A program made the translations under genes and the position numbers. From Bacilli bacterium (GTDB taxonomy: Bacteria; Bacillota_I; Bacilli_A; RFN20; DUOF01), in NCBI GenBank assembly GCA_045128835.1, contig JBGVRX010000002.1, positions 44,145 to 108,144 of the forward strand: DNA of 64,000 nucleotides. Reading direction: 5' to 3'. How positions within the stretch are numbered: the stretch's first letter is position 1; each line of letters starts with the position of its first letter. The notes beneath the pieces are model-generated. The model searched no databases, was not told the DNA's origin, and saw only the letters and a program-made list of their open reading frames with translations. Shown here in pieces: positions 22,798-51,807 of the stretch.

Positions 22798-25152
22798 ATG
22801 AAGAAAATATTTAAATATTTATTATTGTTTGTCTGTGTTATCTCGCTAGTTGGATGTAGTAAAGATGGTGTTACTATAAAAGAGCCTAGAACTATTATTT
22901 TGAATGTAGATAGTGAGGTTGTTCCTACTTTCTCAAGTAACTTTGGCACTGGTAGTTACAATGAAACTACCAAAACATATACTCATAACATAGAATCTAT
23001 AAAAGATTTATATATAACTATGTCACATGAAGATTTAAAAACTGTTACAGTTTATGTATCTACAAATGAGATGAGTGAAAAAACAATTACTAAGAATGTA
23101 TCGTTTGGTGTGGAACTAGATGCTAAAGTTCAAATTACAGTAGAGGGAGTGAAAAGTTTAGAGGGACTTGAAATATCAAAACCTTTAAATTACTCTAACT
23201 TAGTAGTAGGTAAAAAGAATACTTTTTCAATGGTTTTGCCATCTAGAGAAAGTGATTATGAAATTAAGTTTACTTTACCTAATTATAAAGAATTTAATCT
23301 AAGTTTAAAGAAAGAAAAATTAGTTAGTGGTAATGCTAAAATTTCTACAATGGCTCTAACAGAAAATCAATTTTTAATAGATATAATTGGTAATTATTAC
23401 AACTATAGTATTTATTCTAAAACAACAAATGAACTAGTTGCTTCAGGATCAAATTATGATATAAATCCAACTACAACTCATGCGGTTATAGATGGAGGAG
23501 ATAGTTATTATATTTATGTTATTAAAAATAATGGTGGAAGTTTCATGAAAGAATTACCAACTAATGAAAATGTTGTTATTGATGTAGGCAACAACTATGT
23601 AAGTTATATGGGATATGTAGATTTTAATACAACATGTAGCTATAGTTCGGCTTATTTATATAATAAAGTAACAGGTGAATTTAATTATGGTGGTAGTCTG
23701 TATGGTTCTTTAGAGGACTATGGATTGTTGTTGTATAGTTATTATGGTGATTCTTTATATTTAGATGATTTAGCAAGTGTTACAACTACTAGTGATGGTT
23801 TTTCTTATCAAGCACAAATTGATTGTACTAATATGGTAGAAGTTTCATTTGATATCACTAAAGTTGATGCTAGAACGAATGATGTGTTAGGTAAAATTAG
23901 TGATACTAGTTATATTAATTTTTCATTGTTAGAAAAAACTTCTTATACTAATGGAGTATTTAGTGGAGAACTAGTAATGATAGAATCAGGCAGTGTTTAC
24001 ATTGATTTATATAATAAAGATAACGTAAAACTTAAAACAGTTACTGAATATATTGATCAATCATTTAGAGGAGGAATATTCTCAGGAACAGTAGAATATG
24101 AAGGAAAAACTATACCATATACATTCCCTATATTTATGGAAAAACTAGTGTATAGTAGCGGTTCATATACATATCCTGCTCAAATTATAAATACAGATAT
24201 TTCTCTAGTTTCAGTTAAATTTTTAACTGAATATGGTTATGTTAATTCATTAGGGGAAGGGCATTATCTTATGGATGAAGAAAATAATATAATAATGCCA
24301 ACACTAATTGGAGGAGTAGCTTATTTTGAGATGGCTGTAGGAGCAACATATAGATTTAAAGATGGAAGTAGAAACTATACGTTCACTGTAACAGAGGAAA
24401 ACGTAAATACAGGTTATGTTTTATTTAAAGATGATTCTATAACTAGTATTAAAATAAAATTACATAAAGGATACTATGTTCAAGTTGATGATATGGCAGG
24501 TATGAAATTCTATGCTGATAGCGAGGGTTATGTGACTATTCCAGTAGGAAATAGATCATACTTATATTTCATTATATCAAATGGTATTATAGACATGAGT
24601 ACGTATTTAAATTTTGATGGTAGAGATTGTTATGAGTATGGAGCGTTTTATCTTCTTAAAGGAGCTAGTATCTCGTCAAGTTATCCTTACTATTATACAA
24701 ATGACGTGAATGATGCCGACGGTAATGTTTATTCTTTATTGCGTAAATATGATGAAAATGACACAATAACAGAGTTGTTTACTACACTTGTTAAAATTGA
24801 TACAAATAATTTTAGAGAAGATAATCAAAAGATTCAAATAAGTGATTTTGTTTATGATAATGAATACAAATCATATTATTTAGATTTAGGCCAATATTAT
24901 GATCATGTAATCAAATTTGACTCTAGTTATCCAACTAGCGCTGTAAGTTTCTCTAGCGAAGTATATGAAGTTGAATTTTATAATAGTGTTAGTGGAAATT
25001 GGGAGAAATACATTTATGTTTATGATGATACTACAATAACACTAGAATATGGAAATGATTCATATACAATCACTAGTCATGATGATAAAAACTTGAAATT
25101 AACTATTGAAGATAATGGAAACGGGTTAGAATTGATAATTAATTCTCAATAA
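22798..25152 (+). CDS. 784-aa lipoprotein of unknown function, cotranscribed with the ABC/FtsX genes
   Basis: Signal peptide with lipobox LVGC. Ser/Tyr/Asn-rich mature region. Confidence 0.6.
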   Translation: MKKIFKYLLLFVCVISLVGCSKDGVTIKEPRTIILNVDSEVVPTFSSNFGTGSYNETTKTYTHNIESIKDLYITMSHEDLKTVTVYVSTNEMSEKTITKNVSFGVELDAKVQITVEGVKSLEGLEISKPLNYSNLVVGKKNTFSMVLPSRESDYEIKFTLPNYKEFNLSLKKEKLVSGNAKISTMALTENQFLIDIIGNYYNYSIYSKTTNELVASGSNYDINPTTTHAVIDGGDSYYIYVIKNNGGSFMKELPTNENVVIDVGNNYVSYMGYVDFNTTCSYSSAYLYNKVTGEFNYGGSLYGSLEDYGLLLYSYYGDSLYLDDLASVTTTSDGFSYQAQIDCTNMVEVSFDITKVDARTNDVLGKISDTSYINFSLLEKTSYTNGVFSGELVMIESGSVYIDLYNKDNVKLKTVTEYIDQSFRGGIFSGTVEYEGKTIPYTFPIFMEKLVYSSGSYTYPAQIINTDISLVSVKFLTEYGYVNSLGEGHYLMDEENNIIMPTLIGGVAYFEMAVGATYRFKDGSRNYTFTVTEENVNTGYVLFKDDSITSIKIKLHKGYYVQVDDMAGMKFYADSEGYVTIPVGNRSYLYFIISNGIIDMSTYLNFDGRDCYEYGAFYLLKGASISSSYPYYYTNDVNDADGNVYSLLRKYDENDTITELFTTLVKIDTNNFREDNQKIQISDFVYDNEYKSYYLDLGQYYDHVIKFDSSYPTSAVSFSSEVYEVEFYNSVSGNWEKYIYVYDDTTITLEYGNDSYTITSHDDKNLKLTIEDNGNGLELIINSQ

Positions 25153-26140: not shown

Positions 26141-26560
26141 ATGAATAATAAACTTACAAGATACAACGATGATGATTTATTTAGTGGCAGTTGGCTTAAA
26201 ACTTTTTTTGATTTACCTGTTTTAAATAATTCTAATATTTTAAAAACAAATATTAGAAAGGAAGGAAATACTTATTTTTATGATGTCGCAGTTCCAGGCT
26301 ACAGTAAAGATGATGTTTCTATTAACTATGAGAATGGGTATTTAATTGTAGAAGCTAAGGTTAGTGAAGAACATAATAATTCTAATAATAAATATGTAAG
26401 GCAAGAAAGGTATTTGGGTAGTTGCTCTAGAAGTTTCTATATTGGTGAGGTAGATGAAAAGCAAATAAAAGCTAAATATAATAACGGTGTACTTAGTATT
26501 TCTTTTAAAGAAGAAACAAATAATAAAGAAACAAAAATAAAAACTATCGAAATTGAATAA
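26141..26560 (+). CDS. Hsp20/alpha-crystallin family small heat shock protein
   Basis: Alpha-crystallin domain (F.RSF.L) and the C-terminal GVL.I.F.K motif. Confidence 0.85.
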   Translation: MNNKLTRYNDDDLFSGSWLKTFFDLPVLNNSNILKTNIRKEGNTYFYDVAVPGYSKDDVSINYENGYLIVEAKVSEEHNNSNNKYVRQERYLGSCSRSFYIGEVDEKQIKAKYNNGVLSISFKEETNNKETKIKTIEIE

Positions 26561-26564
26561 ATAA

Positions 26565-26606
26565 AAAACCTCTTGTTATTAAAAATAAGAGGTTTTCTTT
26601 TTTTAT
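26565..26606. terminator. Bidirectional terminator between hsp20 and trxB
   Basis: aaaacctctt / aagaggtttt stem followed by a T-rich run. Confidence 0.65.
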
Positions 26607-27499
26607 TTGTTATTTAAGTAGTTAATAGCTTCAGTAGCAGCGACTGTTCCATCACTTGTAGAAATAGTTACTTGTCTAAATGCTTTATCTCTACAGTCTC
26701 CTGCGACAAAGATTCCAGGAAGTTCAGTCTTACAGTTATTAGATTCAATATAACCGTATTTATTGGTTTTTAGAATGTTTTTTACAAATTCACTTTGAGG
26801 AGTTAATCCAATTGAGATAAACATTCCATCAAGTGTAATTTCAGAGTCGATTCCATCAGTAGTGATAATAATAGATTCTAATTTGTCTTCACCAATTATT
26901 TTCTTTACTGTTGAGTTTGTAATAACTTCAACGTTATTCTTTTCTTTTAAATTGTTTTCTAATGCACCTTCACAAGTAAGTGTAGGTAAGTTTTGAATAA
27001 CATATACTTTTGTACAAATATCTGACATAGTTAGAGCATTTATAATAGCACTGTTACCTCCACCTATAATAGCAACAACTTTATCTTTGAAGAAGAATCC
27101 ATCGCATGCAGTACAGAAATGTATTCCATTACCGATTAAGTTTTCTTCATTTTCTAATCCTAATAAACGATATTTTGAACCTGTTGCTATAATAACGCTT
27201 TTTGCTTCGTAAGTGTTATCATCTGTTACTACTTTTTTTGTATCTCCATCAATTATTTCTTTTACTTCTTCTAATTCAAATTCAACGTTTAAACTATCTA
27301 CTTGTTCAAACATATTATTAGCTAATTCACTTCCACTTATGCTTGTAAATCCAGGATAGTTCTCAATTAATGGAGAAGAGGCCATTTGGCCTCCGATTGA
27401 TTCTTTCTCCAGAATTAAAACTTTCTTATTGGATCTAGCAGCATATATTGCAGAAGTCATCCCAGCAGGACCACATCCAACAATAATTACATCGTACAT
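26603..27499 (-). CDS. trxB: thioredoxin-disulfide reductase
   Basis: FAD motif GCGPAG, redox-active CTACDG, and NADPH motif GGGNSA. Confidence 0.9.
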   Translation of the reverse strand: MYDVIIVGCGPAGMTSAIYAARSNKKVLILEKESIGGQMASSPLIENYPGFTSISGSELANNMFEQVDSLNVEFELEEVKEIIDGDTKKVVTDDNTYEAKSVIIATGSKYRLLGLENEENLIGNGIHFCTACDGFFFKDKVVAIIGGGNSAIINALTMSDICTKVYVIQNLPTLTCEGALENNLKEKNNVEVITNSTVKKIIGEDKLESIIITTDGIDSEITLDGMFISIGLTPQSEFVKNILKTNKYGYIESNNCKTELPGIFVAGDCRDKAFRQVTISTSDGTVAATEAINYLNNK

Positions 27500-27510
27500 A
27501 TTAATACCTA

Positions 27511-29880
27511 TTATAATGTTTCAATATATTTTTTGATGTTAGATAAATTAACGATATTTTGAACTTCGTTGTTTTTGATAACTACTAGTGTAGGAGCTTG
27601 TTTTACTCCGTATTTTTTAGTTAATTCAACTTTTTCTTCAGCATCTACGAAGTTGAATTTAGTAGATGATTTATCTAATAATTTTTCAGCCATTCTACAG
27701 TTAGGACAAGTTTTTGTTCCAAATAACATTATTTCATCTTCACTTACAGAAGTTGTAGTTGAAGTTCTTGAAGTTGCTGTAGTAGTTGTAGTTGTTTTAG
27801 GTGAAGAAGAACAACTTAAGTCGTAATTCTTTCTGTTTTTGTATTCTTGAGTCTTACCATCGTTCCAGTTTTTAACAGGACGGTAGTAACCAGTGATTCT
27901 ACTGTAGATTTCAGTTTCAGCACCACAGTCAGGACATGTAGATACTTCACCGTTAATATATCCATGAGTTCTACAAATTGAATATACTGGAGATAATGTA
28001 TAGTAAGGTAATTTGTAGTTTTCAGAAATCTTTCTTACTAGGTTAGCAGCAGATTTCCAATCTTCTAATCTTTCACCTAAGAATGCATGGAATACAGTAC
28101 CAGAAGTATAAAGAGTTTGTAATTCATCTTGAATATCTAATGCTGCGAACATATCATCAGTGTATCCTACTGGAAGGTGAGAACTGTTTGTATAATAAGG
28201 TGTTTCTCCTTCTTTTGCAGCAGTGATTAAATCAGGATATAAACTCTTATCTTTCTTAGCAAAACGATAAGTAGTAGATTCAGCAGGAGTAGCTTCTAAG
28301 TTATATAGATCACCATATTCTTCTTGATAATCTGACAATTTTTCTCTCATGAAGTTAAGAACGTTCTTAGTGAATTCTTGTGCTTCTGTTTCTGTTAAAT
28401 CTTTCTTAATCCATTTAGCATTTAAACATGCTTCATTCATACCAACTAATCCGATTGTAGAGAAGTGGTTATTGAATGTACCTAAGTATCTTCTTGTATA
28501 TGGATATAATCCTTCATTTAATAATTTTGTAATAACATTACGTTTGATTTTTAAACTTCTTGCAGCTAAATTCATCATGTTTTCTAATCTTTCATAGAAT
28601 TCTTTTTCTGTTTTAGCTAAGTATGCGATACGAGGAATATTGATAGTTACAACACCAATTGATCCTGTTGATTCACCACTACCGAAGAATCCTCCTGATT
28701 TCTTTCTAAGTTCTCTTAAGTCAAGTCTTAAACGGCAGCACATACTACGAACATCACTTGGTTCCATATCACTATTGATATAGTTAGAGAAGTAAGGTGT
28801 TCCGTATTTTGCAGTCATTTCAAATAATAATTTGTTGTTTTCTGTTTCAGACCAGTCGAAGTCTTTTGTGATTGAATAAGTTGGGATTGGGTATTGGAAT
28901 CCTCTTCCGTTAGCATCTCCTTCGATCATTGTTTCGATGAATGCTTTGTTTACCATATCCATTTCTTTTTGACAATCTTTATATTTGAAGTCAACTTCTT
29001 TACCTCCAACGATACAGTTAAGTTCTGCTAAATCGTTTGGAACAGTCCAGTCTAATGTGATGTTTGTAAATGGTGCTTGAGTACCCCATCTACTTGGTGT
29101 ATTAACACCATATATAAATGATTGAATACATTGTTTAGTTTGTTTGTATGTTAAATTATCGATTTTTACAAATGGTGCTAAATAAGTATCGAATGATGAG
29201 AATGCTTGAGCTCCAGCCCATTCATTTTGCATGATACCTAAGAAGTTAACCATTTGGTTACATAAAGTTGATAGGTGTTTAGCAGGAGATGATGTAATCT
29301 TTCCAGGAATGCCTCCTAAACCTTCTTGGATTAATTGTTTTAAACTCCATCCAGCACAATAACCTGTTAACATTGAAAGGTCATGTAAGTGGATGTCACA
29401 GTTACGATGAGCATCAGCAATAGCGTTATCATAAACTTCACTTAACCAGTAATTAGCAGTAATAGCTCCAGAGTTTCCTAAAATTAATCCGCCTACTGAA
29501 TAAGTAACAGTAGAGTTTTCTTTAACTCTCCAGTCAGTAACATTTAAGTAACTATTCACTACATCTTTATAATCTAATACTGTAGATTTCATGTTACGCA
29601 TTTTATCGTGTAATTTACGGTATAGGATGTAAGCTTTAGCGACATCTCCATAACCAGCACTAATTAAAACGCTTTCAACGCTATCTTGGATGTCTTCAAC
29701 ATCTACGATATTATCTTTTACTTTGCTTTCGAAATTAGCAGTAACTTTTAATGCTAAGAAATCAATGATGTTTTCATCATATACTTTATTCTCAGCTTCA
29801 AATGCCTTAGTTATTGCTTCTGTGATTTTTTTGATTTCAAATGAAACTATTTTTCCTTCTCTTTTTCTTACTTTAAACAT
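27511..29880 (-). CDS. nrdD: anaerobic ribonucleoside-triphosphate reductase (class III) with a C-terminal glutaredoxin/NrdH-like domain attached via a poly-Thr linker
   Basis: N-terminal ATP-cone and an IHLHDL active-site region. Zn-ribbon CPDCG plus the glycyl-radical motif SRITGYY. Then PKTTTTTTATSRTSTTTS, followed by a thioredoxin-fold domain with CPNC. Confidence 0.9.
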   Translation of the reverse strand: MFKVRKREGKIVSFEIKKITEAITKAFEAENKVYDENIIDFLALKVTANFESKVKDNIVDVEDIQDSVESVLISAGYGDVAKAYILYRKLHDKMRNMKSTVLDYKDVVNSYLNVTDWRVKENSTVTYSVGGLILGNSGAITANYWLSEVYDNAIADAHRNCDIHLHDLSMLTGYCAGWSLKQLIQEGLGGIPGKITSSPAKHLSTLCNQMVNFLGIMQNEWAGAQAFSSFDTYLAPFVKIDNLTYKQTKQCIQSFIYGVNTPSRWGTQAPFTNITLDWTVPNDLAELNCIVGGKEVDFKYKDCQKEMDMVNKAFIETMIEGDANGRGFQYPIPTYSITKDFDWSETENNKLLFEMTAKYGTPYFSNYINSDMEPSDVRSMCCRLRLDLRELRKKSGGFFGSGESTGSIGVVTINIPRIAYLAKTEKEFYERLENMMNLAARSLKIKRNVITKLLNEGLYPYTRRYLGTFNNHFSTIGLVGMNEACLNAKWIKKDLTETEAQEFTKNVLNFMREKLSDYQEEYGDLYNLEATPAESTTYRFAKKDKSLYPDLITAAKEGETPYYTNSSHLPVGYTDDMFAALDIQDELQTLYTSGTVFHAFLGERLEDWKSAANLVRKISENYKLPYYTLSPVYSICRTHGYINGEVSTCPDCGAETEIYSRITGYYRPVKNWNDGKTQEYKNRKNYDLSCSSSPKTTTTTTATSRTSTTTSVSEDEIMLFGTKTCPNCRMAEKLLDKSSTKFNFVDAEEKVELTKKYGVKQAPTLVVIKNNEVQNIVNLSNIKKYIETL

Positions 29881-29884
29881 AAAC

Positions 29885-30613
29885 TTACCTCTTTCCTCTC
29901 CCCCTAATTGTTACATTAGGATATCTTCTTTCTAATTTTTTTTCGATTTCTAGTAATTCAGCATCGCTAAACCCACTTAATCCTTTTTGTAAAACTGTAT
30001 CGCAATCTCGATAATTTTGAATGTAGAATTTAACGCTTGGACCTAGATAGTCTAGAATTTCTTCAATATTTTCGAAACTATGCAACTCTTTTACTACAGT
30101 TGTTCTAAACTCATAGTCGATATTAGATGATTTAAGAACATCAATACTTTCTTTTATATCATCTAAACTTACTTTTGCTCCGGAAGTAACATCATACTTT
30201 GAAAAAGTGTTTTTTACATCCATTGCTACATAATCGATCAGGTTACAATCAATTAGTTTCTTCAATATTTTTGGTTTGCTACCATTAGTGTCCAATTTAA
30301 CTTTATAACCTTTCTCTTTTATTTTTCTAATGAACAGTTCAATATCTTTCTGTAATAGTGGTTCCCCTCCACTAATACATACTCCATCAATCAACCCCTT
30401 TCGTTTATCTAAATAATCAAATAAAACCTGCTCATCAATTTTATTTGAGTCATTAGCACCTTTAATCAAGCCACTGTTATGACAGAACGGACATTTAAAG
30501 TTACACCCTTGAGTGAAAATTATACATGCCGTATGTCCAGGAAAATCAACCAATGTTAATTTTTGAAAACCACTAATTTCCATAATTGTATTTGTTTCCT
30601 CCAAATTTAACAA
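29885..30613 (-). CDS. nrdG: anaerobic RNR activating enzyme (radical SAM)
   Basis: CNFKCPFCHN radical-SAM cluster motif, 242 aa. Confidence 0.85.
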   Translation of the reverse strand: MLNLEETNTIMEISGFQKLTLVDFPGHTACIIFTQGCNFKCPFCHNSGLIKGANDSNKIDEQVLFDYLDKRKGLIDGVCISGGEPLLQKDIELFIRKIKEKGYKVKLDTNGSKPKILKKLIDCNLIDYVAMDVKNTFSKYDVTSGAKVSLDDIKESIDVLKSSNIDYEFRTTVVKELHSFENIEEILDYLGPSVKFYIQNYRDCDTVLQKGLSGFSDAELLEIEKKLERRYPNVTIRGRGKR

Positions 30614-32549
30614 AACCTACATTGTTCTCTATTAAATGATTAATAATGTTTAATATATCTTTTTGTTTACTACTCTTAGATAAATTTACTATTACTAAAT
30701 TTCCTCCTGTTAGTAGTGATTGATATTTTCCAATGTAGTAGAAGTCTTCTTCTTTGTTTGATTTGAATTCGAATAAACTATCGATTCTTGAATAATGTTC
30801 TTTATCGGTGATTTTCTTTCTGATTCCATATATTGATTTATCTAATTCCATTAATTTCTTTAATGGACGACGTTTGCTTGTTTCGCTGACAACGAAATTC
30901 ATTTTGGTTTCTTTTGTATATTTTATGCACTGTTCTTTTACGTAATTTATAATACTTACTAATAATTCTTTTTGTTTTATTTCATCTTTTTCTAAATTTA
31001 AGACACATTCGCTTAGACCTGCAAGTTCTAAGTTTAAAACACCTTTTTTGATAATCTTTCTGATCTTTTGACTGCTTTCTAACTTTTCGTCATCAATGAT
31101 ATTTCCGTTAAATAATATTTGGTAATTATCTTTACTCTTATCACCAATGATTTCAAAGATATTAACTAAGCAGTTTTTAGCCATTTCTAACCAACCATCA
31201 AGAGCTAGGTAGAAATCTTTGATATCTTTATTTTCGTACTTAAACCCTAGTCTACCCATATTTACTGAAACAGAAGCTACAATCATTCTTCCAGTAGATT
31301 CGTTTTCTTCATAAACATAATTTTCATAAACTCGGTGTCCATTACTGAAGTATTCGGTATTTTCTAAATTGTAACTAGTATTTATATTAGCTAAAGCAAT
31401 GTTTTTTTCTTCAATAATTAAACCGCTTACTTTATTTAATAAATCTTTATTGGTATCTTTACTTATTTTATAGATGGTAGTTATATTTTCTAGTCTATCC
31501 ATCTTTTCTAAGATAGATAAGTAAGTTTCATTTATTAATGTTCCATCTAATGAAGTATTTCCTCCTAAACTAATTGAATACTTTTTGTTTTCTAAGTAAT
31601 TGTTGTTTAGATTGTTTAGCAGTACTTCAAGTGAATTAACTAGTAGACTTTTTATGTATTTCATACTGTCACTATAAGCTAAATCGAATATTTCTTCTGT
31701 TTTTTTGTTAAGAATAAAGTTATCAAATAAAGTTTTCTCAAAATAAATACTGTTTTGTTTATCGATGATTTCTTCGATTCTTTTGATATTTATATATTCT
31801 AAATATCCAGTTAAATCTAAGTATTTATTTAAATTGCTTTTTAATTCTTCTTTAAATTGTTCGCTAACATAAGGTAGTAACAAATGATCTAATGCGTCTA
31901 TGCATATTTCACCATCAATTTCTAGTTTTACATTTAAGGCATTAAATATTAAGTCATTTGGGAAACTCTTGTTAATGTCTTTTGTAAAAATTGGGTGAGT
32001 TGATGATAACTTACCTAGATTGAAGTAATCTAAGTTATGTATGTATAAATTTCCTTCTTCGTGAGATCTAACATACTTGTTATCTAAAACAAAAGCTTTT
32101 GTATATTCACATGATATGGTTTTTCCAAAATCCAAAAGGATTTCATTTGGGGTACTATCTTTTTTGAATTCACCAATACGTTCAATTGCTTTTGCAAATT
32201 TGTGTTGTTGTCTTAAACCAAATACTTTTCTAGAAGTTGCTCTTCTAATTCTGTAATCACTAAATGCCTCATAAACATCGGTGAAATTGTTTTCTTTTAA
32301 TTTTGTTTCTATAATATCTTGTATATCTTCAACATTGATAGTCTTTCTATCTATGTAAGTGTTGTTGATGAAATTTAGAACGTCTGCGTAAACTTTATTA
32401 ATTCCAGGTTCAGAATTAATAGGTCTAACTTGGTCGAAGGCTTTTTTGATTGCTACAGCAATTTTGGTGCTGTTGAACTCAACTCTTTGACCGCTTCTTT
32501 TGACGACAACTAAATCTTTTAAGATATTTTTTATGTTCTCCCCAGCCAT
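30573..32549 (-). CDS. NrdD-like paralog: ATP-cone plus truncated/degenerate class III RNR core lacking the catalytic Cys and the glycyl-radical domain
   Basis: N-terminal ATP-cone (VVKRSGQRVEFNSTKI). LYIHNLDYFNLGKL aligns to the NrdD IHLHDL..GYCAGW region but the catalytic Cys is replaced. No RxxGY and no Zn ribbon. Overlaps nrdG by 41 nt. Confidence 0.6.
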   Translation of the reverse strand: MAGENIKNILKDLVVVKRSGQRVEFNSTKIAVAIKKAFDQVRPINSEPGINKVYADVLNFINNTYIDRKTINVEDIQDIIETKLKENNFTDVYEAFSDYRIRRATSRKVFGLRQQHKFAKAIERIGEFKKDSTPNEILLDFGKTISCEYTKAFVLDNKYVRSHEEGNLYIHNLDYFNLGKLSSTHPIFTKDINKSFPNDLIFNALNVKLEIDGEICIDALDHLLLPYVSEQFKEELKSNLNKYLDLTGYLEYINIKRIEEIIDKQNSIYFEKTLFDNFILNKKTEEIFDLAYSDSMKYIKSLLVNSLEVLLNNLNNNYLENKKYSISLGGNTSLDGTLINETYLSILEKMDRLENITTIYKISKDTNKDLLNKVSGLIIEEKNIALANINTSYNLENTEYFSNGHRVYENYVYEENESTGRMIVASVSVNMGRLGFKYENKDIKDFYLALDGWLEMAKNCLVNIFEIIGDKSKDNYQILFNGNIIDDEKLESSQKIRKIIKKGVLNLELAGLSECVLNLEKDEIKQKELLVSIINYVKEQCIKYTKETKMNFVVSETSKRRPLKKLMELDKSIYGIRKKITDKEHYSRIDSLFEFKSNKEEDFYYIGKYQSLLTGGNLVIVNLSKSSKQKDILNIINHLIENNVGFVKFGGNKYNYGN

Positions 32550-32578: not shown

Positions 32579-32607
32579 ATCATAGCAAACACTATATATG
32601 TGGTCAA
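32579..32607 (-). promoter_or_regulatory. Promoter of the nrd operon (minus strand: -35 TTGACC, 17 nt, -10 TATGAT). An NrdR-box-like palindrome (CCACATATATAGTGTT) lies in the spacer.
   Basis: On the minus strand the sequence reads ttgacc-acatatatagtgtttgc-tatgat. The spacer matches the NrdR box consensus acaCwAtATaTwGtgt. Confidence 0.5.
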
Positions 32608-50504: not shown

Positions 50505-50533
50505 TTGCAAAAAAAATAAAGATATGATATAAT
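50505..50533 (+). promoter_or_regulatory. Near-consensus sigma-A promoter (-35 TTGCAA, 17 nt, -10 TATAAT) driving the large ncRNA locus
   Basis: ttgcaa-N17-tataat. No ORF lies downstream for >600 nt. Confidence 0.55.
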
Positions 50534-50539
50534 ACCAAA

Positions 50540-51125
50540 CTGTGGAGGTGCAGTATTCTAGTCAGTTTTGCTGCTATGAAGACGTATTAAGACGTTTGAG
50601 GGCACATCTATGAAGTTCTTGGTGCTTGCTTTGGTTGCCCAAACTGGGGTGGGTGCTGAGAGTTAAGATTTTTGGGCGCACTATAACGGCATATAGTATA
50701 CGACCCAACTATCGCGGAGACGCAGATGGGTGTAGATTCGTTTACACTCCCTGCGAAGAACCTGCATTGCAGTAACATGTGTGCAGTGTAGCCTGGTTTG
50801 AGTGAATAACGAGGGATTACATGTATGACAAATATAAATACTTGGCCAGTTTTATATTCTGATTTTGTATGAAATCTTATTTGCAAAACATCCTAGTAGC
50901 ATGTCAAAGCTGTCAAGGAAAACTTCTAGACTGTTAAATTTATTTAGATGTTTTAAGGATTATAGTGTGTACTAAGTGGCGATTCGGTGTGTAAACTTGC
51001 TTAATAGGAAACTGCTCTACTGGTAACGGTAAGCGTGAGTTTGAGAAATTCGACCGAACCTAAGACATAAGGTTTACTTAATTCATTACCTTCACATAAC
51101 GCAGTGCATTCGTGCTGCGTTTTAC
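50540..51125 (+). ncRNA. Large (~585 nt) structured noncoding RNA candidate; OLE-like (ornate large extremophilic) RNA or related large ornate RNA
   Basis: 650 nt without any credible ORF in an otherwise gene-dense region. GC content is visibly elevated (~43-45%) relative to the flanking ~28%. Many local helices (ctgcattgcag, gtgtagattcgtttacac, cgcag...ctgcg). Own strong promoter. 3' hairpin aacgcag-N10-ctgcgtt. A DxxxD 4-TM protein gene lies immediately downstream, like oapA. Confidence 0.5.
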
Positions 51126-51189: not shown

Positions 51190-51807
51190 ATGGAAAAAGA
51201 TGGATCGAAAAAGAAAAAGAATAAAAATGTGTTTACGGAATATTTTAGGTGGCCATTAATAGTTTTGGCAGTTTCTTTATTTTTATCATTTTCTTTTAGT
51301 TTTCTTAGTGAATTAGCATTGAGTAATGCTAGTTTAGTAGTAGCTATTTTAGTTATTGTGTTCTTTATGTTTGTATCAATAATAACTGACGCTATTGGTG
51401 TTGCAGTTACTGCAGCAGTGGAAGTGCCTTTTAGAGCAATGGCTGCTAAAAAAGTAAAAGGTGCGAAAGAAAGTATTATTTTAATTAATAATGCAGATAA
51501 GGTTGCAAGTATTATTGCAGATATCTTAGGTGATATTTGTGGTATCTTATCAGGAGCCGCAGGTGCAGTTGTTACAGCTAAACTTATTGAAGGAGTAACA
51601 GACTCAATGCAACTTGTAGTAATAGCATCTATGGTTAGTGCAGTTATCGCAGGTGTAATTATCTTTGGTAAAGCCATGGGTAAAAAAGTAGCTTTGGATA
51701 ATTGCGATAAAATAGTGCTTATGATAGGTAAAATAGTTTATATATTTACTTTTGGTAAATTATCACTAAAGAATAAAAATCCAAACAAACAACAAGGGTC
51801 TAATTAA
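51190..51807 (+). CDS. small 4-TM membrane protein with DxxxD motifs in TM helices, OapA-like (OLE-associated protein A)
   Basis: 205 aa; 4 predicted TM helices. TM2 has ITDAIGV. TM3 has ADILGDICG, a DxxxD motif. Located directly 3' of the large ncRNA. Confidence 0.5.
   Translation: MEKDGSKKKKNKNVFTEYFRWPLIVLAVSLFLSFSFSFLSELALSNASLVVAILVIVFFMFVSIITDAIGVAVTAAVEVPFRAMAAKKVKGAKESIILINNADKVASIIADILGDICGILSGAAGAVVTAKLIEGVTDSMQLVVIASMVSAVIAGVIIFGKAMGKKVALDNCDKIVLMIGKIVYIFTFGKLSLKNKNPNKQQGSN

Follow-up and report, generated by a model that had tools for sequence, protein, structure and literature searches.

Strict anaerobes require class III ribonucleotide reductases (RNRs) to make their DNA. We describe here a gene for such an enzyme (NrdD) in a stretch of 64,000 nucleotides from a Bacilli bacterium (assembly GCA_045128835.1, contig JBGVRX010000002.1, positions 44,145 to 108,144), called the window below, in whose coordinates all positions are given. 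The window is AT-rich (28.9% G+C), and the gene (27511..29880, minus strand) is the third in a tight cluster of four minus-strand genes, which encode an NrdD paralogue, NrdG, the NrdD and a TrxB-like flavoprotein and which lie 4–11 nucleotides apart or overlap. The NrdD carries a thioredoxin-fold domain at its C terminus, and the product of the cluster is probably a redoxin-dependent class III RNR that is self-contained, in which electrons would pass from the flavoprotein through the fused thioredoxin (Trx) domain to the active-site disulfide.

Class III RNRs are divided into single-cysteine enzymes with an MGCR finger loop, which use formate and form a Met-Cys thiosulfuranyl radical, and double-cysteine enzymes with an xCCR loop (Burnim et al., PMC9669993). 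In the NrdD of Neisseria bacilliformis, a finger-loop cysteine and a cysteine on strand βA form a disulfide that thioredoxin reduces, and in redoxin-dependent NrdDs the proton is proposed to come from a glutamate at position 495 (Thermotoga maritima numbering) (PMC9669993). Turnover of the N. bacilliformis enzyme with thioredoxin, thioredoxin reductase and NADPH is attributed to Wei 2014 in PMC9669993 and PMC4493059. Most double-cysteine NrdDs (83%) retain the methionine and seem equipped for either reductant (Burnim et al., PMC9669993). Redoxins fused to RNR subunits have also been described. A glutaredoxin (Grx) domain fused to NrdB is a functional RNR reductant in Facklamia ignava, and Grx fusions to NrdA, NrdD and NrdJ are listed as well (Rozman Grinberg et al. 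2018, PMC6187632). The sole NrdD fusion in the 2018 RefSeq survey is a Glutaredoxin:NrdD, that is, an N-terminal one, of subclass NrdDd from Lachnospiraceae TWA4; a C-terminal thioredoxin-like fusion to NrdD is not mentioned in that paper (PMC6187632).

The fusion protein and its relatives

The gene encodes 789 amino acids followed by a stop codon, and its translation contains SRITGYY, SSSPKTTTTTTATSRTSTTTSVSEDE, LFGTKTCPNCRMAEKLL and APTLVV exactly. Domain searches confirmed that the product is a class III RNR with a C-terminal thioredoxin-fold domain. An ATP-cone (residues 3–93, 29602..29874; PF03477, E = 6e-22) is followed by the NrdD catalytic core with its zinc site and glycyl-radical domain (residues 121–686, 27823..29520; PF13597 (NRDD), E = 2e-191), all on the minus strand, as are the other features of the cluster. 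The closest solved relative of the core is T. maritima NrdD (4COI/4U3E, E = 5e-43), and the protein scores 522 bits against TIGR02487 (cut-off 326). The NCBIfam equivalog PRK08270 matches residues 2–688 only (1134 bits, cut-off 548), which makes the final 101 residues an extension of the NrdD family. They consist of a Ser/Thr-rich linker of 28 residues that lies outside every family model (689–716, 27733..27816) and a thioredoxin-fold domain of 73 residues that includes a QAPTL cis-Pro motif (717–789, 27514..27732).

An earlier note on this DNA, made from the letters alone, had described the added domain as glutaredoxin- or NrdH-like with a CPxC site. A CxxC redoxin is indeed present, with the active site CPNC (Cys725-Pro-Asn-Cys728, 27697..27708), and the thioredoxin fold proposed in that note is borne out; the subfamily is a different one. 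The domain is a shortened thioredoxin of the desulfothioredoxin-like kind, has a CPNC site specific to its family, and is neither a glutaredoxin nor an NrdH. AlphaFold2 (AF2) models the last 82 residues (alignment of 41 sequences) with a predicted local distance difference test score (pLDDT) of 92.4 as β-α-β-α-β-β-α, the minimal thioredoxin fold, with CPNC at the start of helix H19–30 and the QAPTL cis-Pro ahead of strand E57–62. In Foldseek searches of the PDB the top matches are thioredoxins with a probability of 1.00, led by Desulfovibrio desulfothioredoxin (2L6C) and, in second place, Clostridium acetobutylicum thioredoxin (6GN9); Bacillus subtilis TrxA bound in an RNR complex (9BXS_E) is also matched. 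The best sequence match by phmmer is again 2L6C (E = 7e-8), and a profile of 66 fused domains gives 39.9 bits to the 2L6C segment, compared to 18.1 for Trx1, 16.7 for NrdH and 13.7 for Grx1 of E. coli as reference sequences.

Two overlapping Pfam matches pass their cut-offs on the fusion C terminus, Glutaredoxin (PF00462, residues 717–767, 25.7 bits, cut-off 22.9) and Thioredoxin (PF00085, residues 714–778, 25.4 bits, cut-off 23.5), and PF00462 also passes on the isolated domain (30.6 bits). The curated redoxin equivalogs reach, in whole bits, at most 27 against cut-offs of 85–97. We rejected a glutaredoxin on the basis of TIGR02181 (20.6 bits, cut-off 90), an xPTL-type cis-Pro motif that reads APTL, as thioredoxins have it, instead of the glutathione-binding TVP, the lack of GG..D and the rank of Grx1, which is lowest in the family profile. 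NrdH-redoxin was rejected because TIGR02194 gives 24.7 bits (cut-off 85.75) and neither CVQC nor WSGFRP is present. Nor does the domain match classical TrxA (TIGR01068, 27.4 bits, cut-off 96.8), from which it differs in having CPNC rather than WCGPC and 73 rather than ~105 residues, TrxA possessing an extra N-terminal β-α unit.

Alignment with T. maritima NrdD places Cys175 on strand βA (29356..29358) at the position of Cys125, directly after Tyr174 (Tyr124 in T. maritima), and the finger loop Met380-Cys381-Cys382-Arg383 (28732..28743) against 328-SCCR-331. Glu529 (28294..28296) falls in the column of Glu495, as defined in PMC9669993. The zinc-binding site (Cys636/His639/Cys649/Cys652, 27925..27975) precedes the RxxGY glycyl-radical motif, as expected of NrdD, and the motif itself, RITGYY (R661-I-T-G664-Y), contains Gly664 (27889..27891). 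Among the full-length relatives, taken from different species, no variation occurs at Cys175, the four finger-loop residues, Glu529, the zinc site, Gly664 or CPNC (66/66 in every case). The fusion protein therefore has both marks of a redoxin-type NrdD, the double cysteine of xCCR and a glutamate at position 495. It lacks the feature of the "thioredoxin-only" subclade, the absence of a finger-loop methionine, as Met380 is present and likewise invariant (66/66). Judged by these residues (Met, Cys-Cys and Glu), the window enzyme belongs to the Met-containing double-Cys majority class. The active-site inspection proposed in the earlier note thus gives a divided answer: the double-Cys loop, the βA cysteine and the glutamate are those of thioredoxin-using enzymes, but the formate-type methionine is kept as well, and because the loop reads MCCR and not SCCR, the choice between Cys and Met leaves room for formate.

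The linker, which the earlier note had called poly-threonine, is Ser/Thr-rich in the window protein, but Thr-rich linkers are otherwise confined to the closest strains (≥92% identity). In the relatives it is 13–50 residues long and without sequence conservation, and may be K/E-rich, Cys-rich or Ala-rich. A hypervariable linker between invariant parts argues for two functional modules on a disordered tether. Some linkers are strikingly Cys-rich (loci L022, L069, L061, L013, L034, L064 and L002; for example, CECGDKCECGDNCECDGCTC and GDCCCCES), and Cys690 of the window protein is common to only 15/66 relatives. For such cysteines, metal binding and electron shuttling like that of class I/II RNR C-terminal tails are both conceivable.

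The fusion is common, not rare. Among the 120 closest database homologues (81–100% identity; 771–799 residues, with one of 950), all 120 have ATP-cone, NRDD and Grx/Trx Pfam matches, and all 120 have both MCCR and the C-terminal CPNC. Independent metagenome assemblies hold a near-identical protein, which differs in one linker residue, and others that are 98–99% identical, with the same neighbor genes. In a scan of one genome per species with the last 159 residues as the query, a relative is encoded in at least 559 of the 598 candidate stretches, and the best 80 species-level stretches, which include isolates, matched over both the NrdD C terminus and the redoxin domain in every case (80/80). 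The carriers are Bacilli/RF39-like metagenome-assembled genomes (MAGs) from gut and rumen, Oscillospirales, Lachnospiraceae and MAGs labelled Erysipelotrichaceae, Tenericutes or Mycoplasma sp. CAG; isolates include Faecalicatena contorta, F. orotica, Schaedlerella arabinosiphila and Mediterraneibacter hominis. Public databases contain the family in abundance, under the plain name "ribonucleoside triphosphate reductase".

We also looked for a split (Rosetta-stone) form, with NrdD and redoxin as separate proteins, and accepted none of the candidates as evidence for one. Short matches of 72–151 residues are mostly fragments that begin at the internal methionine of "MLFGTKTCPNC" or come from short contigs. 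A seemingly stand-alone redoxin of 90 residues (P0048, locus L081) has no trxB behind it, and since the NrdD 3′ end ahead of it contains N and a frameshift, this locus is a broken fusion. In a search of cluster representatives with 89 residues of the domain, almost all of the 764 matches were short fragments; clustering at 50% blurs fused and free forms in that set.

The linked flavoprotein and the electron path

The gene for the TrxB-like protein, a low-Mr flavoprotein disulfide reductase of 298 residues (26603..27499), starts 11 nucleotides after the NrdD stop codon. This adjacency, which the earlier note had pointed out, extends well beyond the window. In 78 of 80 species-level loci, the gene that comes next on the strand of the fusion gene is trxB-like (median gap 9 nucleotides). 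The upstream sequence is long enough to judge in 52 loci, and in 49 of these NrdG lies ahead of the fusion gene. By these counts, conservation of the nrdG-nrdD::trx-trxB module extends from Bacilli-like lineages as far as Lachnospiraceae.

The best PDB relatives of the flavoprotein are Firmicute (NADPH-)thioredoxin reductases (E = 6e-71), and its score against TIGR01292 (319.6 bits) is just under the cut-off of 343.45. It has the N-terminal flavin adenine dinucleotide (FAD) motif VGCGPAG, the redox-active C129-T-A-C132 (27104–27115) and, for the GxFAAGD motif of such reductases, GIFVAGDC. Other motifs have diverged. Q169-N-L-P-T-L-T-C176 (26972–26995) replaces HRRDxxRA, the NADPH 2′-phosphate motif; the pyrophosphate motif GGGxxAxE reads GGGNSAII, with no Glu; and the thioredoxin-contact GR/KG reads GNG. 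In GIHFC, a His stands in place of the Ser before CxxC, as in TR3-type reductases. The operon-linked orthologues have HRRDEFRG in Lachnospiraceae and QNLxxLT in Bacilli-like lineages and Oscillospirales, while others are intermediate (YRGxxLR, CRKDKFK).

Variation at the HRR region tracks donor switching in related enzymes, with DvTR3 and T. maritima TrxR taking electrons from NADH, and TRi and FFTR from ferredoxin or an unknown donor, and TR3-type enzymes have His for Ser just before CxxC (Valette et al., PMC5627308). The HRR/QNL split among the operon-linked proteins suggests that the electron donor switched within one orthologous TrxB group. On these motifs, the donor of the window TrxB is probably not NADPH; candidates are NADH and a low-potential protein. 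DvTR3 works with desulfothioredoxin, the redoxin that the fused domain matches best, and this likeness is a lead, though not a test, towards NADH or another non-NADPH donor. Membership of the FFTR family was rejected, since the protein is far closer to NADPH-thioredoxin reductases (E = 6e-71) than to 6GNA (E = 4e-37).

How might these parts work together? In the redoxin-dependent enzyme that we favor, NrdG would install the glycyl radical at Gly664, from which the radical would move to Cys381 or Cys382 of the finger loop as a thiyl. The two electrons that reduce the 2′-carbon would come from Cys175 and the second finger-loop cysteine, which would be left joined in a disulfide, and Glu529 would donate the proton. 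On its flexible and fast-evolving tether, the Trx-like domain would then re-reduce this disulfide through CPNC, either in cis or across the dimer, and would itself be re-reduced by the co-transcribed flavoprotein, using FAD and C129xxC132. In favor of this scheme are the invariance of the named residues beside a variable linker, the trxB adjacency, the match of the catalytic residues to those of thioredoxin-using NrdDs, the confident fold and the F. ignava precedent. What the data show is the domain architecture, the fold, the residue invariance and the gene order; which way the electrons run, which disulfide they reach and what feeds the flavoprotein we infer by analogy with N. bacilliformis NrdD and the F. 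ignava Grx::NrdB fusion.

Several observations weigh against this scheme. Met380 is invariant, and formate-dependent NrdDs use that residue for the thiosulfuranyl radical (PMC9669993). The window TrxB is without HRRxxxR and under the NCBIfam TrxB cut-off, which puts NADPH in doubt as its electron source, and an adjacent trxB is missing in 2/80 loci. Redoxin-driven turnover is, for every member of the fused family, a prediction. According to the account relayed in PMC5627308, the closest characterized redoxin, the desulfothioredoxin DvTrx3, is an isomerase and not a reductase in vitro. Finally, a folded redoxin would have to gain access to a disulfide inside the barrel, a difficulty that the N. 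bacilliformis and T. maritima enzymes share.

One alternative is that the fused redoxin serves activation or maintenance, keeping cysteines of the neighboring zinc-finger/glycyl-radical domain or of NrdG reduced, which would allow the glycyl radical to be installed, or renewed after mild oxidation, while formate drives turnover via Met380 and Cys175. The invariance of Met380, the tethering of the domain right behind the zinc-finger/glycyl-radical domain and the Cys-rich linkers of some relatives would all be consistent with such a role. However, Glu529 and the second finger-loop cysteine are invariant although both are dispensable for formate chemistry, and a dedicated flavoprotein reductase in 78/80 loci fits stoichiometric flux better than occasional repair. 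We consider this alternative unlikely.

It is also conceivable that the enzyme takes either reductant at its MCCR and Glu site, with the fusion and trxB as a back-up when formate is absent. That 83% of double-Cys NrdDs keep the methionine (Burnim et al., PMC9669993) speaks for a dual-reductant enzyme, as does the invariance of Met, double Cys and Glu alike in the fused relatives. However, no enzyme has been shown to use both reductants and the methionine could be kept for structural reasons, and we regard this possibility as improbable.

A third possibility is that the domain is the general thioredoxin of the cell, parked on NrdD in a reduced genome and serving many clients with TrxB. RF39-like Bacilli carriers do have small genomes, and no other Trx-type CxxC redoxin motif was found within the 64-kb window, but the fusion and the operon are kept in large-genome Lachnospiraceae such as Schaedlerella arabinosiphila (6.3-Mb contig), and a tethered domain makes a poor diffusible reductant. 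Moreover, Clostridia typically own several Trx systems (PMC10880999), and this role appears very unlikely.

That misassembly or a frameshift joined two genes is already refuted by the 120/120 fused homologues, by the 80/80 best species-level genomes that match both parts, isolates included, and by near-identical and 98–99% identical proteins in independent metagenome assemblies, the one seemingly stand-alone redoxin (P0048) being itself a broken fusion; the earlier note had named such an artefact, absent from related genomes, as one outcome that would refute its claim.

The paralogue and other features of the window

The first gene of the cluster (30573..32549) encodes an NrdD paralogue of 658 residues with a Pfam ATP-cone and a weak NRDD match. 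By hhalign it aligns with NrdD residues 3–602 at 98% probability, and its AF2 model (pLDDT 83) finds the class III RNRs of Prevotella copri and Streptococcus thermophilus as the best Foldseek matches (E down to 1e-28, TM-scores 0.67–0.81). The ATP-cone is highly conserved, with an invariant VVKRSGQRVxF, and the RNR barrel is kept as well. The paralogue has no cysteine at the βA or finger-loop positions and ends before the zinc finger and the glycyl-radical domain, and the sole invariant cysteine of its family, C515, is at a non-catalytic position. Because the catalytic cysteines, the zinc finger and the glycyl-radical domain are all lacking, the paralogue is predicted to be catalytically dead. 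The family comprises at least 1189 clusters of a uniform ~658 residues under the NCBI name "hypothetical protein", and it is present in 26 of the 52 judgeable loci, in Bacilli/RF39-like operons and not in Lachnospiraceae ones. No description of it was found in the literature searched. That it is a pseudo-subunit with a role in regulation or scaffolding is an attractive hypothesis, and this dead paralogue may be a stranger feature than the fusion.

The second gene encodes the radical SAM activase NrdG (29885..30613; TIGR02495 NrdG2, 224 bits, cut-off 131; Pfam Radical_SAM and Fer4_12). These coordinates are those of the longest open reading frame (ORF), which has a TTG start, overlaps the paralogue gene and lies 4 nucleotides upstream of the fusion gene; an independent gene call on a near-identical contig gives an NrdG of 232 residues, which would place the start near 30583. 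Ahead of the cluster is a promoter-like site, TTGACC-17-TGnTATGAT (32579..32607), which is sigma-70-like by consensus match only (10/12 positions, with an extended −10 TG). A near-palindrome between its −35 and −10 hexamers, CACATATATAGTG, resembles an NrdR box. Its spacing is 1 nucleotide shorter than what we take to be the NrdR-box consensus, and we make no claim for NrdR. At the other end, a palindromic, terminator-like hairpin with a 13-bp stem (26565..26596) marks the end of the cluster, between trxB and a convergent gene for an HSP20 small heat-shock protein (26141–26560, plus strand); the hairpin could terminate both transcripts.

Taken together, could the four genes form a self-sufficient anaerobic factory for deoxyribonucleoside triphosphates (dNTPs) of a kind not yet described? 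The dead ATP-cone paralogue would pair with or regulate the active NrdD, as yeast Rnr4 does in class I; NrdG would be the activase of an NrdD that bears a tethered thioredoxin; and the TrxB homologue would have left NADPH for NADH or a low-potential carrier (ferredoxin/flavodoxin). We regard this combined picture as possible but doubtful. If true, DNA-precursor synthesis would be coupled directly to the fermentative redox state, and the universal fusion would give genomic evidence, the first of its kind, that the majority NrdDs with MCCR and Glu use a protein reductant and not formate.

Within the 64-kb window, neither a further glycyl-radical motif, such as pyruvate formate-lyase has, nor another CxxC redoxin motif was found, which speaks for the redoxin-dependent reading. 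Elsewhere in the window, all on the plus strand, are a full-length OLE (ornate large extremophilic) RNA (50529–51108; Rfam RF01071, 369 bits), an ORF just downstream of it that might encode an OLE-associated protein (51190–51807), and a gene for a predicted lipoprotein of 784 residues (22798–25152) with a signal peptide ending in LVGC and an N/Y/S/T-rich, low-complexity-looking sequence.

Comparison with known systems

In the full-text literature searched, neither a C-terminal Trx-like fusion to NrdD nor its linkage to trxB is described; an earlier mention in Wei et al. 2014 or 2015 is possible. The concepts are already known, both that of redoxin-dependent class III RNRs and that of redoxins fused to RNR subunits. 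The fusion is an architectural variant that they predict, and known RNR chemistry is unchanged. That hundreds of species of gut Firmicutes have a Met-double-Cys active site fused to a Trx-like domain and linked to trxB speaks strongly, on comparative grounds, for a protein reductant. The cultured carriers offer a convenient system for finding out by what route a redoxin gets to the disulfide buried in a glycyl-radical RNR, the HRR/QNL split among the TrxB proteins is a natural experiment on electron-donor switching, and the dead paralogue hints at an unrecognized regulatory subunit.

The window enzyme shares with N. bacilliformis NrdD2 and T. maritima NrdD the double-Cys finger loop, the βA Tyr-Cys, Glu495, the zinc site and the glycyl-radical motif, as well as, in our proposal, a protein disulfide reductant. 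However, those enzymes have SCCR without the methionine and use free thioredoxin, and the T. maritima protein has no ATP-cone, whereas the window enzyme has MCCR, a covalently attached redoxin and a reductase encoded in the operon. Like the F. ignava Grx::ATP-cone::NrdB, it carries a redoxin fused to an RNR polypeptide, which would act as a built-in reductant here too, but the F. ignava fusion is a class I protein with an N-terminal domain of the glutathione (GSH)-dependent GrxC type on the radical-generating subunit.

Methanosarcina barkeri NrdD3 reportedly has a dedicated NrdH-like redoxin and a ferredoxin:disulfide reductase (FDR) encoded in its operon. It would thus resemble the window enzyme as a class III RNR with a dedicated operon redoxin and a dedicated non-NADPH disulfide reductase. 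It differs in a QCCR/A loop with neither Met nor Glu, in a redoxin that is separate and NrdH-like, and in an FDR that is an Fe-S protein and not a flavoprotein.

For the redoxin and its partner, the closest parallel is Desulfovibrio vulgaris DvTrx3 (2L6C) with DvTR3, which has in common with the window pair a CPxC site, a co-encoded atypical TrxB and a His before the CxxC of the reductase. However, DvTrx3 is a free protein of 104–110 residues with CPHC, DvTR3 prefers NADH, and no link to an RNR is described for them. Loss of HRRxxxR from an otherwise normal low-Mr thioredoxin reductase is a feature that the window TrxB shares with clostridial FFTR (6GNA), DvTRi and the Thermoplasma acidophilum TrxR (3CTY). 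It differs from TRi, which has TQ/NGK, in having QNLxxLT, and its own Lachnospiraceae orthologues keep HRRDEFRG.

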